Part shown: one piece after another, positions 9,667 to 13,058 of the stretch
How the letters are laid out: every line of letters begins with the position of its first letter
How positions within the stretch are numbered: the stretch's first letter is position 1
Sequence record: PP925837.1
Reading direction: 5' to 3' (one strand)
Source of the DNA: Escherichia phage Turner
DNA: 48,223 nt
The notes under the pieces: model-generated
Databases searched by the model: none
What the model was told of the DNA's origin: nothing
The model's input: only the letters and a program-made list of their open reading frames with translations
Translations under genes and position numbers: made by a program

Positions 9667-9972
9667 TCAATATACATTTTGCACCTTCGAGATAGTAATG
9701 GCTGTTACTGTAACATGAGTTACAAACAGCTTCATACCCAGAGCTACTGATGTATCAACTCGATTCAACAATACCCGATATTTATTCCATGCCTCCAGCA
9801 ACGATCTTTCTTCCTCCGTTGCGATTTCCAGATCTACAGCATCCTGCAGTGGCGCAATATACTCACTGAATTCCTGGATGTAGAACTGTGTGGTGACGGT
9901 CTTCCAGCCATTCGGCTCCTGCTGTATCGAAGCATACCAGGCTATTTCAATATCGCTATGCTGCGGCAGCAT
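9667..9972 (-). pseudogene. tail-fibre assembly protein remnant (tfaX-like): conserved Tfa C-terminal motif with unrelated N- and C-termini
   Basis: Contains [37 protein letters not shown] shared with the intact Tfa at 12483-13058, then diverges; no upstream fibre gene. Confidence 0.6.
9741..9860. repeat. direct repeat copy A (about 120 bp, about 85% identical to copy B; 40-bp perfect core 9807-9846)
   Basis: Read directly: core tttcttcctccgttgcgatttccagatctacagcatcctg is shared with 12578-12617. Confidence 0.85.
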
Positions 9973-10040
9973 TTAACCCCTTGTAATTCATCGCCATAAT
10001 TGATTTAATTCACAAATAAAACTATAACATGGTGAAATTA

Positions 10041-10697
10041 ATGAAAAAAAACACAGATGATGGGGCTAAAATTTACACACCACTTACCCTAAAGCTTTAT
10101 GACTGGTGGGTTTTGGGAGTATCAAATCGGCTTGCATGGGGATGTCCTACAAAGGAACACCTTCTTCCACACTTTCTGGAACATTTAGGTAACAACCATC
10201 TGGATATTGGTGTTGGAACTGGGTTTTACCTTACTCACGTACCTGAGAGTAGTCTGATATCTTTAATGGATTTGAACGAAGCTAGCCTGAACGCGGCATC
10301 TACAAGGGCTGGGGAATCAAAAATTAAACATAAAATTAACCATGATGTTTTTGAACCTTATCCCGCGGCGTTACATGGTCAATTTGATTCCATTTCCATG
10401 TTTTACCTTCTTCACTGCCTGCCTGGAAATATATCTACAAAAAGCTGTGTAATACGCAATGCGGCGCAGGCCTTAACTGACGATGGAACTCTATACGGAG
10501 CCACAATTCTTGGCGATGGAGTTGTGCACAATAGCTTCGGTCAAAAACTGATGCGCATTTACAATCAGAAAGGCATCTTTTCAAACACAAAAGATTCCGA
10601 AGAAGGCTTAACACATATACTCTCAGAGCATTTCGAGAATGTTAAAACCAAGGTTCAAGGTACTGTAGTAATGTTTTCCGCTTCAGGGAAAAAATAG
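10041..10697 (+). CDS. class I SAM-dependent methyltransferase (ybcY-like); not a DNA methyltransferase by motif
   Basis: Motif I DIGVGTGF; no DPPY/NPPY motif; start at ATG 10041 (GGTGA RBS) preferred over 10029; similar in position and type to K-12 DLP12 ybcY. Confidence 0.75.
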   Translation: MKKNTDDGAKIYTPLTLKLYDWWVLGVSNRLAWGCPTKEHLLPHFLEHLGNNHLDIGVGTGFYLTHVPESSLISLMDLNEASLNAASTRAGESKIKHKINHDVFEPYPAALHGQFDSISMFYLLHCLPGNISTKSCVIRNAAQALTDDGTLYGATILGDGVVHNSFGQKLMRIYNQKGIFSNTKDSEEGLTHILSEHFENVKTKVQGTVVMFSASGKK

Positions 10698-10704
10698 CAT
10701 CCAA

Positions 10705-10745
10705 CCGCAGCACGTTCTTGCATAAGGCGTGTCTGCGGTTTTTCA
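10705..10745 (+). terminator. rho-independent terminator after the methyltransferase gene
   Basis: ccgcagcacg...cgtgtctgcgg stem followed by ttttt. Confidence 0.5.
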
Positions 10746-11244
10746 ACTATTCAGATACATCACTCCCATCACATTCATTCCTCCGCATCATAGGCATATA
10801 GGCTATATCACCTTGATATTTTTCTTCTTCAGATAAAAACTGTTATCTATGTATACTTTTAAACCCAATCCGTGTAGAGTCTCTGCATAAGATAGTTTGC
10901 AGTTGCCACTTCAGCTTGCGCCATAAACCGCCTGATTTTTGCCGCCACCTGTTAGCATTCCTGTATACCTGAAACGACAATGTTTATCTACGAACTTTAA
11001 GAACACCCAGGATAAAAATTGTCAACTATATCATATATAACACATTACTAATTCGAGGCTATATGAACAGCATACTGATAATCACTTCTCTCCTTATCAT
11101 ATTCAGCATTTTTAGTCATGCCCTAATAAAATTAGGGATTGGCATATCCAATAACCCAGACAAAACCGATGTATAAGTCAACATATCCTGAATCAGACAT
11201 ACAATATCGCAATGAAAATCAATAATATTTTAAGGAATATCTTC

Positions 11245-11478
11245 ATGAAATCAAAAGACACCCTAAAGTGGTTCCCTGCGCAGCTTCCTGAAGTAAGAAT
11301 TATCCTAGGGGATGCTGTAGTGGAAGTAGCAAAACAGGGAAGACCTATCAATACCAGAACATTGCTTGATTACATTGAAGGAAACATAAAGAAAAAATCA
11401 TGGCTGGATAACAAAGAATTATTACAAACAGCGATATCAGTTCTTAAAGACAACCAAAATTTAAATGGTAAAATGTAA
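11245..11478 (+). CDS. small protein, YdfK/YnaE-like (Qin/Rac prophage cold-shock-associated family, recalled from memory)
   Basis: 77 aa from ATG 11245 (AAGGA RBS): MKSKDTLKWFPAQLPEVRIILGDAVVEVAKQGRPINTRTLLDYIEG...; lies next to the pin-like gene as in Rac/Qin. Confidence 0.6.
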   Translation: MKSKDTLKWFPAQLPEVRIILGDAVVEVAKQGRPINTRTLLDYIEGNIKKKSWLDNKELLQTAISVLKDNQNLNGKM

Positions 11479-11794
11479 TATAATAAACTTACTTTTTTAT
11501 CATTTTTCCACTTTAACAACATTTTGCTCCACTTTTCCACGATCAAACAACTTGAAATCTGGTTAAAATAACACGCAACACTATTCTTCTTCCTTGAGTC
11601 CGCCCGGAACTCGAAAAACAAACCGAGTTAAAGCCATTTTTCACAAAATCGATTTTGGGTCTCACCAAAATTACGGGGTTGCATACGCATTCGTTTATTT
11701 TCGAACGTGTACATACAAATATGCACAAAAATAATCAAAATTATTTTCTGAGATGCATTATGATATGAACACCAATTTCGTATAGAGTCTCACT

Positions 11795-12385
11795 ATGTCT
11801 CGAATTTTTGCTTACTGTCGGATATCAACGCTGGATCAGACCATCGAAAATCAACGCCGGGAAATCGAAAGTGCAGGTTTTAAAATCAAACCTCAGCAAA
11901 TAATCGAAGAACACATTAGCGGCTCAGCAGCAACCAGTGAGCGTCCTGGTTTTAACCGGTTGCTTGCTCGCCTGAAATGTGGTGATCAATTGATTGTGAC
12001 AAAACTGGATCGCCTTGGTTGTAATGCAATGGATATCAGGAAAACAGTGGAACAACTGACCGAAACAGGTATCAGAGTGCATTGCTTAGCATTGGGGGGC
12101 ATTGACCTGACCAGTCCAACAGGAAAAATGATGATGCACGTAATTTCAGCAGTCGCTGAATTTGAACGAGACCTTTTACTTGAACGCACTCATTCCGGGA
12201 TAGTAAGAGCCCGCGGCGCAGGGAAACGTTTTGGTCGACCACCTGTGTTAAATGAAGAACAGAAACAGGTGGTATTCGAACGAATTAAGTCAGGTGTAAG
12301 TATAAGTGCCATTGCCCGGGAATTCAAAACCTCGCGGCAAACCATTTTAAGAGCCAAAGCAAAACTTCAGACACCTGACATATAA
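11795..12385 (+). CDS. pin: small serine recombinase, DNA invertase family (PinQ/PinR-like)
   Basis: 196 aa; catalytic-Ser motif [15 protein letters not shown] motif, C-terminal HTH; convergent with tfa, as with pin genes next to stf/tfa in K-12 cryptic prophages. Confidence 0.85.
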
Positions 12386-12482
12386 AAAATAATCTCGGTG
12401 TGAGATGCTTTACGTCTTCCAAGCCCCCTTCCTTGCCGTAAATGGAAAGATACATCTAATTATAGAATTTATATGTTTTACC

Positions 12483-13058
12483 CTACGGCAGTGCTGGCCA
12501 TTCAATATCCTGTGCAGTTGACGTATCAACACGGTTCAGCAACACCCGATACTTTTTCCAGGCTTCCAGCAATGAGGTTTCTTCCTCCGTTGCGATTTCC
12601 AGATCTACAGCATCCTGAAGTGGCGCAATATGCTCACTGGCTACCTGCATCAGGCTGTTTTTTGTTTCTTCCGCCTCTCGGATCCGGAACAGTTTTTCTG
12701 CTTCTGCATCTTTCACCCAGGCTGTGCCGTTCCACTTCTGAAACTCCCCTTCCGGCGATAACCAGGTAACATTTTCCGGTAACGGACCGAGTTCAGAAAT
12801 AAATAACGCGTCCCCTGACGCTACGTCATAAACCGTTTTACCCCGATGGTCTTCAACGAGATGCCACGATGCCTCATCACTGTTGAAAACAGCCACAAAG
12901 CCAGCAGGAATATCTGGTGGTGCAATATCGGTACTGTTTGCTGGCAGACCTGTATGAGGCGGAATATATGCGTCACCTTCACCAATAAATTCATTAGTTC
13001 CGGCCAGCAGATTATAAATTTTTATGGTCCGTGCTTGTTCACTCATTCTGAATGCCAT
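12483..13058 (-). CDS. tfa: tail-fibre assembly protein Tfa
   Basis: 191 aa; C-terminus ...[48 protein letters not shown]; ATG overlaps stf stop. Confidence 0.9.
12511..12630. repeat. direct repeat copy B (partner of 9741-9860; 40-bp perfect core 12578-12617)
   Basis: Read directly; lies within the tfa C-terminal coding sequence. Confidence 0.85.

Follow-up and report, generated by a model that had tools for sequence, protein, structure and literature searches.

Escherichia phage Turner (sequence record PP925837.1) was analysed as one stretch of 48,223 nucleotides, which we refer to as the window. Two tfa-derived sequences stand in it as a direct repeat, one inside the intact tfa gene, which sits downstream of stf (the side tail fibre gene), lom and J, and one inside a short chimeric relic designated tfa'. 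Between them lie the genes for a Pin-type recombinase, a YdfK/YnaE-like protein, the small protein YnaM and a methyltransferase. We consider it quite likely that tfa and the relic are jointly a scar of lambdoid mosaicism, and that homologous recombination between the two copies sometimes deletes the interior. The basis for this reading was observed, and consists of the anatomy of the locus, its breakpoints relative to other phages, the population variants and the dispersed crossover points.

The tfa/tfa' repeat and its composite interior

The repeat and the genes that carry it are as follows (strand in brackets).

9734-9879: direct repeat copy 1, inside tfa', with the perfect core at 9807-9846
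12505-12650: direct repeat copy 2, inside tfa, with the perfect core at 12578-12617
9667-9972 (-): tfa' relic open reading frame (ORF), 101 amino acids (aa), homologue of K-12 tfaX, phrog_2341
12483-13058 (-): tfa, intact, 191 aa, Pfam Caudo_TAP E = 3e-44
13058-16423 (-): side tail fibre gene stf, 1121 aa, StfR-like (986/1121 identical), the upstream partner of tfa

The initial annotation of this DNA had described direct repeats with a 40-bp perfect core in two tfa copies 2.8 kb apart. A repeat search bore this out, aligning the copies over 146 nt with 122 identical positions (84%) and a start-to-start spacing of 2771 bp; the BLAST alignment of the two covers 121 nt at 88%, and the exact 40-bp core is TTTCTTCCTCCGTTGCGATTTCCAGATCTACAGCATCCTG. 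No other repeat longer than 37 nt was found between window positions 7000 and 15000, indicating that the tfa/tfa' repeat is not due to chance.

Both copies match Pfam Caudo_TAP, and the repeated segment is the part common to the Tfa proteins of lambda, P2, P1 and Mu. Tfa has been described as having a conserved C-terminal helical domain and a variable N-terminal domain that binds the fibre (PMC9608196). Judged from these matches, the repeated segment encodes the conserved C-terminal (trimerisation) helical domain, which explains its conservation at the DNA level among otherwise differing tfa genes, that of lambda included. The 40-bp core is allele-specific, being exact in both K-12 DLP12 copies and carrying 2 mismatches in the tfa genes of Rac, Qin and PhiR68_2.

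The same segment is recorded in Rfam as IS009 (RF02111), a candidate small RNA (sRNA). IS009 matches the tfa copy end to end at 12517-12715 (-) with 226.7 bits against a gathering score of 117, and repeat copy 2 sits within this match; the match to the tfa' copy at 9746-9949 (-) scores 107.7 bits, just below the gathering score. The repeat unit thus belongs to the family, but the match is to the sense strand of a protein-coding segment, and what Rfam lists as an RNA appears to be nothing other than tfa C-terminal coding sequence. The analysis turned up no support for an RNA function of the IS009 segment.

The left-hand copy had been called a truncated tfa. It is Tfa-derived and its Tfa N-terminus is missing, but it is an intact 101-aa chimeric ORF (phrog_3893-like plus tfa) and no simple duplication. 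Only residues 31-77 are Tfa-like, matching Pfam Caudo_TAP and the Tfa families, residues 3-37 match phrog_3893, and the whole ORF corresponds to phrog_2341. Tfa homology stops at about 9865-9880, at the illegitimate joint, and the window's version, which is of the hydrolase flank type, has other sequence in place of its last ~12 native codons. These matches show tfa' to be a chimera of ~37 N-terminal codons from an unrelated small phage ORF and the conserved Tfa C-terminal segment. The N-terminal part resembles a 79-aa ORF of Klebsiella phage Kp4882-3 that adjoins a umuD-like gene, which hints that an ORF of this type may have been the source of the non-tfa part of the chimera. In the Kp4882-3 locus (3004-3571) the first ~35 residues of this ORF are tfa'-like, and the ORF lies just upstream of, and slightly overlaps, a umuD/S24-peptidase-like ORF.

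The genes and elements between the two copies are listed here.

9973-10028: divergent spacer between tfa' and the methyltransferase gene, with a promoter-like site at 9973-10000 (+)
10029-10697 (+): ybcY-like class I S-adenosylmethionine (SAM)-dependent methyltransferase, 222 aa, phrog_2132
10703-10743 (+): terminator hairpin, CCGCAGCACG...CGTGTCTGCGG then T5, folding at -22.3 kcal/mol, z = -5.1
10739-12495 (+): ynaM-ydfK-pin cassette, 1757 bp, an indel relative to PhiR26_1 and K-12 DLP12, 98% identical to Rac and Qin
11063-11176 (+): ynaM/ynfT small ORF, 37/37 aa identical to K-12 YnaM and YnfT
11245-11478 (+): ydfK/ynaE, 77/77 aa identical to YdfK and 76/77 to YnaE
11795-12385 (+): small serine recombinase Pin of the PinR/PinQ type, 196 aa, 194/196 identical to PinR, 192/196 to PinQ and ~38% to PinE

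The enclosed Pin-like invertase, YdfK/YnaE-like gene and SAM methyltransferase are as first described, with the ynaM ORF in addition. They had been taken for one module captured as such, a view that does not survive comparison with related phages: the 2.6 kb between the repeats falls into two blocks that assort independently and have junctions of their own. By BLAST, phage ev243 is collinear with window 5000-10738 at 99.7%, and PhiR26_1 is collinear with 6389-10738 at 99.6% and then continues straight to 12496 onward; K-12 DLP12 makes the same 10738/12496 jump. Rac is collinear with window 10701-14035 (98.1%) and Qin with 10688-13261. The first block, the methyltransferase and its hairpin, belongs to tfa' and the constant int-ompT-hydrolase block (99.6-99.7% in ev243 and PhiR26_1). 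The second, the ynaM-ydfK-pin cassette, belongs to the Rac/Qin-type fibre genes and is present or absent independently; its edges are the methyltransferase hairpin and the last codons of tfa.

The hairpin is predicted to be the terminator of the methyltransferase gene. It also coincides with a mosaic joint: the ~40 bp at 10701-10738 recur in the DLP12-type, Rac, Qin, ev243, PhiR26_1 and 2H10 loci, and the DNA that flanks them on each side is unrelated from one phage to another. A weak, sub-threshold Rfam CssrB match (28.5 bits) on the minus strand at 10706-10843 overlaps the hairpin.

Viable phages exist with every combination of the blocks: stf-tfa-methyltransferase-tfa' in PhiR26_1, stf-tfa-pin-ynaE-methyltransferase-tfaX-appY in PhiR68_2, a different fibre cassette followed by methyltransferase-tfa' in ev243, and stf-tfa-pin-ydfK without the methyltransferase in 2H10. 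IMG/VR holds 114 loci with tfa', and 103 of them have a complete methyltransferase gene, beyond which tfa follows directly (48 loci), the pin cassette (8), the contig end (10) or other sequence (37). In ev243, where a different stf and two small non-homologous genes have replaced stf-tfa, a second tfa 3' remnant of ~100 bp (locus 6276-6373) adjoins the methyltransferase hairpin, so that the methyltransferase stands between two tfa relics and there is no intact tfa. This second remnant, at a site where a non-homologous fibre cassette replaced stf-tfa, shows how tfa relics arise.

The tfa gene of the window is itself mosaic, being of the Rac type at 12483-12522 and of the DLP12/PhiR26 type at 12543-12972, with the switch between 12522 and 12543. 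A parentage switch inside the window's own tfa marks the conserved tfa 3' segment as a crossover zone between phages. The stf 3' end is Rac-type again from about 13196, and over 12483-13300 parentage changes every few hundred bases.

We suggest that in the founding event, an old illegitimate or unequal recombination, a phage with the order tfa-hairpin-methyltransferase-(phrog_3893-like ORF) was joined into the middle of another phage's tfa, a join that would have created the direct repeat automatically. In DLP12-family lambdoid phages the relic and the methyltransferase are now a fixed element of the b-region, the non-essential stretch from the tail fibres to attP. The adjacent fibre cassette is freely swapped, the variants seen being stf-tfa, stf-tfa-pin-ydfK-ynaM and non-homologous fibre genes. 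Homologous recombination most likely brings these swaps about, with the methyltransferase hairpin and the tfa 3' segment as the two short stretches of conserved sequence at which it acts.

Evidence for recombination between the repeats in natural isolates

Junction-specific queries were run against 5,426 complete E. coli genomes. The methyltransferase-hairpin-tfa junction was found in 2,291 genomes, the methyltransferase-hairpin-pin cassette junction in 317, and the whole architecture of window 9500-13100 in 311. A 410-nt query for a tfa by tfaX junction with the K-12-type appY flank identified nine genomes. These read J-lom-stf-tfa-appY-ompT-attR, without methyltransferase, pin or relic, and stf-tfa is fused to the tfaX 3' end.

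Among the nine fusions, the crossover falls at no fewer than four distinct points of the repeat. In EM18-18-42 and WGI31CT the crossover lies inside the 40-bp core, and the full-length tfa carries the relic's TGA, flagged as an internal stop by the Prokaryotic Genome Annotation Pipeline (PGAP). Three crossovers further 3' are represented by Res13, CFIA and SFE8, with 5' parents of the tfaD, PhiR26 and Rac types, respectively. The hybrid tfa reading frame is intact at seven of the nine loci, ending in ...VAPDIEWLIQP.

The EM18 locus finds its closest relatives among module-bearing genomes, in which the matches span 8272 or 6550 bp compared with 5501 bp, exactly 2771 or 1049 bp more; the difference from XH988 is the 1049-bp one. 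Since EM18 scores closer to module-bearing genomes than to other module-less ones, the module-less state arose more than once. SFE8 and strain 602687 (stf-tfa-pin-ydfK-ynaM-methyltransferase-tfaX-appY) likewise differ by exactly 2771 bp, with arms that are 99.6% and 99.4% identical. From these comparisons, the nine loci most probably reflect homologous recombination that took place repeatedly between the direct repeats and by which the enclosed genes were lost as a unit. Polarity, in the sense of deletion, is firm only for the TGA-carrying pair EM18-18-42 and WGI31CT. For most variants the direction of change (deletion over insertion) is one that we infer, as we do the founding event and the recombination system acting.

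Homology of 40-146 bp suffices for recombination by both RecA and RecT in E. coli, as with Red/RecET. RecA or the phage's own RecT/YqaJ system could therefore occasionally delete the interior by recombination between the direct repeats. Loss may go unseen with the hydrolase flank because the hybrid Tfa would carry a non-native tail and be selected against, which is one possible reason; the seven appY-type hybrids with an intact frame stand in contrast to this.

Several points weigh against a scar that now serves as a deletion substrate. The founding recombination is a reconstruction from sequence. The tfa by tfa' deletion with the hydrolase flank was found in none of the 5,426 genomes (810-nt synthetic junction query), the core-crossover deletion junction and its reciprocal were both absent from IMG/VR against 114 parental contigs as positive control, and the appY-type junction occurred in none of 50,697 phage records. 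Deletion is thus a prediction for the window's own sequence, and the proposal in the initial annotation that the enclosed segment could be lost as a unit holds for the nine appY-flank genomes, among them SFE8 with its exact 2771-bp deficit, with no such junction found for the flank that the window carries. Crossovers 3' of the nonsense codon, as in the Res13, CFIA and SFE8 types, could represent an 'empty site' or allelic exchange with one. In addition, tfa' starts with ATG behind an upstream Shine-Dalgarno-like AAGGGG and its ORF is intact; its commonest form in IMG/VR, in about 65 of 114 copies, encodes an 88-89-aa product with a complete Tfa C-terminus; and the ratio of nonsynonymous to synonymous polymorphism is ~0.4 of neutral, in a crude count with little divergence and with a few rearranged loci contaminating the first 45 nt, codons 15-37 having fewer nonsynonymous changes than expected under neutrality.

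The absence of a hydrolase-flank junction would fit a different history, in which the nine module-less loci preserve the ancestral state from before the insertion, or are allelic mosaics of that state, the repeats never recombine with each other, and all variation is due to capture. The intact hybrid tfa at seven of the nine loci could then be the original from which tfaX was cut. However, the TGA of the relic is found within a full-length tfa in EM18 and WGI31CT, and the 5' parts of the fusions match three present-day tfa alleles (tfaD-, PhiR26- and Rac-type) with differing switch points. Their arms are 99.4-99.9% identical to module-bearing loci, closer than to each other, and the size differences are exactly the repeat spacings of 2771 and 1049 bp. 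We regard this history as improbable.

The features of tfa' listed above could instead mean that it is a working gene, a mini-Tfa in which a foreign N-terminus is attached to the trimerisation domain and which acts as a Tfa-trimer modulator or dominant-negative, or as an inhibitor of competing phages' fibres; the DNA repeat would then be a by-product of selection on this protein. Having a PHROG family of its own, phrog_2341, would agree with this, as would the binding of RpoD holoenzyme to the K-12 spacer homologous to that of the window (ybcY<>tfaX), a spacer that H-NS binds as well (PMC3946193). The literature found on ybcY/tfaX consists of promoter-mapping papers, with nothing on recombination. 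Nonsense and frameshift alleles are common, however: besides the 101-aa form of the window, IMG/VR holds a 61-aa form ending at a TGA, as in K-12 and PhiR68_2, at 13 or more loci, an 11-aa form at 3 and a 106-aa form at 5. Furthermore, the window copy is without the native C-terminal 12 codons, the N-terminal fibre-binding domain is absent (PMC9608196), PGAP calls the same sequence in E. coli chromosomes a pseudogene without an N-terminus, and the copies are too similar for a real test of nonsynonymous against synonymous change (dN/dS). A working tfa' is in our opinion unlikely. The more specific proposal that tfa' is expressed and co-assembles with or poisons Tfa trimers, tuning the phage's own side fibres or sabotaging superinfecting lambdoid phages, is less likely still. 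If it were true, the direct repeat would be kept by selection, and as a subsidiary possibility RecT/YqaJ might shed cargo through the repeat at a tuned low rate.

With these alternatives weighed, we return to the mosaic scar. It is an ordinary and already annotated one, from which repeat-mediated loss is rare but real. Any residual novelty would lie in tfa' being a functional mini-Tfa ORF, an unlikely possibility.

The Pin recombinase

Pin consists of a Resolvase and an HTH_7 domain, its best PDB match is Gin (E = 1e-29), and a promoter-like site of its own, TGTACA-16-AATAAT, lies at 11708-11735. The setting recalls the Mu G/Gin, P1 C/Cin and e14 P/Pin systems in having a serine recombinase gene beside stf/tfa and a second tfa-derived sequence nearby. 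It differs from them in that the window has neither inverted crossover sites nor an alternative stf 3' end, and in that the recombinase is only ~38% identical to PinE. With the K-12-derived arms of e14 pix as the query, the pix repeat had no match anywhere in the window at up to 3 mismatches, and AAACCNNGGTTT cores occurred at chance level in the window, with none in stf or tfa. A repeat search found no significant inverted repeat around pin and no inverted copies of the fibre segment. The second tfa sequence lies in direct orientation beyond pin, has no stf fragment alongside, and brings no alternative stf 3' end.

According to Kirigo et al. 2025 (PMC12529663), PinQ and PinR act in trans to invert the P segment of e14, and the identity between PinQ and PinE is 38%. 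In BLAST surveys by the same authors, inversions were found in e14 only and none in Rac or Qin (PMC12529663). The absence of a pix-like site, together with the trans action on e14, indicates that Pin is here an orphan without a substrate in cis. The initial annotation was right that Pin cannot invert a fibre segment at this locus, and a local DNA-invertase fibre switch of the Gin/Cin/Pin/Hin type was rejected for want of inverted crossover sites and alternative stf 3' ends.

A second role for Pin would be excision or resolution of the pin-ydfK-methyltransferase segment as a circle, with the repeats serving as res- or pix-like sites. A small serine recombinase does lie between direct repeats of ~120-146 bp, a size similar to that of the Tn3/gamma-delta res sites, and its sequence is about as close to resolvases as to invertases. 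Yet 2,291 genomes, and phages too, have these repeats on either side of the methyltransferase in the absence of pin, and pin cassettes occur without tfa' in Rac, Qin and 2H10. The four or more dispersed crossover points speak for homologous and not site-specific recombination, no pix-like sequence is present in the window, and the repeat is plain tfa coding sequence that lambda, too, possesses. We consider this role barely credible. Res-like sites for Pin were rejected on the grounds that the repeats occur without pin and that the natural crossovers are dispersed. In all likelihood the repeats serve no function of their own and do not act as sites for a recombinase.

Phage context and wider meaning

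To the left of the repeats lie an IntD-type integrase gene (5212-6375, +), ompT and an alpha/beta hydrolase gene (8000-9484, +) followed by a terminator at 9505-9540. E. coli chromosomes with the matching locus align to the window only from 6389 rightward and have envY-ybcH-nfrA on the other side, while ev243 is collinear without a break through int and ompT; the window is thus in the phage, attP-intact configuration. The window also encodes a cI-like repressor, RecT, YqaJ exonuclease, O, P, a porin and a large serine recombinase, and has a cos-like site at 36037, so that it is essentially a whole DLP12-like lambdoid genome. Positions 1-1100 adjoin the cI-like repressor gene and 45970-48223 end in the O/P replication genes, with cos and attP internal. 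This layout suggests a full phage genome, circularly permuted and cut open within the immunity region; no terminal overlap was found between its ends.

All cargo genes are oriented the same way as int, as are the genes of the lambda b region. The hydrolase flank defines the b-region variant of the window, K-12 and PhiR68_2 carrying appY at that position; hydrolase and appY alternate at this one position among sister phages. The hydrolase, which has a TAP-like C-terminal domain and adjoins tfa', matches the PADLOC candidate-defence model PDLC01094 'C3a206' (E = 7e-56). The genome has three site-specific recombinases, namely the tyrosine integrase, the small Pin and, in the early region, a 508-aa large serine recombinase (Resolvase, Recombinase and Zn-ribbon; 43488-45014, -). 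Three cargo genes encode outer-membrane proteins: an intact NmpC-like general porin (38887-39984, +), OmpT (6860-7813, +) and Lom (16482-17081, -). Owing to the Ala/Ser-rich repetitive centre of stf (15013-16020), the other frames and the opposite strand contain long ORFs that are spurious, for example of 335 and 249 aa.

Methyltransferase homologues in phages are all at least 98.6% identical. Chromosomal homologues, at 56-70% identity, occur in Enterobacter, Salmonella and others, where they stand alone and their gene neighbourhoods are unrelated. The protein has no match in NCBIfam and a marginal one in PADLOC, and against PDB it shows weak similarity (E ~1e-3) to UbiG and juvenile-hormone-acid O-methyltransferases. 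In keeping with its first description as a non-DNA methyltransferase, nothing points to DNA methylation, and the sequence-related structures are small-molecule O-methyltransferases only. These matches are consistent with a cargo gene ('moron') for a methyltransferase of the small-molecule or protein type and not for a DNA methyltransferase.

The end of K-12 DLP12 is annotated tfaD-ybcY-tfaX-appY-ompT, so the repeat pair flanking a methyltransferase is an already annotated K-12 feature, a point that the initial annotation missed. The tfaX-ybcY of DLP12 is 98% identical to window 9773-10738, and the K-12 tfaX-ybcY spacer and 5' part have a nearly identical counterpart in window 9790-10028. As in DLP12-type b regions, the ybcY-like methyltransferase gene of the window is convergent with tfa with the hairpin between them (the pin cassette here separating hairpin and tfa), a tfaX-type relic is divergent from it, and the site lies between the fibre genes and the ompT/att region of an IntD-type phage. 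DLP12 and the window share the methyltransferase, the relic, the hairpin joint, all orientations, the exact 40-bp core and the fibre-to-ompT/att position. DLP12 differs in having no pin-ydfK-ynaM cassette, which gives a repeat spacing of ~1.05 kb, and in having appY where the window has the hydrolase. Moreover, its ybcY is a frameshifted pseudogene, its tfaX carries a TGA, and the prophage is a decayed remnant whereas the window is a complete phage form with attP and cos.

The counterpart on the fibre side is found in Rac (stfR-tfaR-pinR-ynaE-ynaM), Qin (ynfT-ydfK-pinQ-tfaQ-stfQ) and 2H10, which run hairpin, pin, tfa, stf collinearly with the window at 98%; the Rac/Qin cassette genes on the tfa 3' side are near-identical, with protein identities of 99-100%. 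Unlike the window, these loci have neither methyltransferase nor tfa', and beyond the hairpin they have unrelated DNA and their own att, so the direct repeat is missing from them; in their tfa alleles the 40-bp core is matched at all but 2 positions.

Mosaicism of lambdoid phages at short conserved boundary sequences and b-region 'moron' cargo genes are established concepts. The locus agrees with them in its sharp transitions between 98-99.7% identical blocks at the hairpin and inside a conserved gene segment, and in that ompT, the hydrolase, the methyltransferase, ydfK and pin have their own promoters and terminators. There is no fundamental difference from lambdoid mosaicism; the added detail is that a direct repeat made by a scar is used for deletion in natural isolates.

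The practical consequences concern annotation. A 'Pin' found beside these fibre genes does not warrant the label of a local fibre-switching invertase, and the Rfam IS009 'sRNA' should be read as tfa coding sequence on its sense strand. Genome assembly and typing schemes should allow for repeat-to-repeat indels of 1.05 kb and 2.77 kb at this locus. About half of the complete E. coli genomes in the survey have the methyltransferase-tfa junction, and those genomes probably carry the tfa/tfa' repeat pair as well. Although the current understanding of phage biology is unchanged by the finding, the locus provides a natural example of how lambdoid phages exchange fibre and cargo cassettes at very short conserved sequences, and of a recombination scar that later serves as a substrate for deletion.

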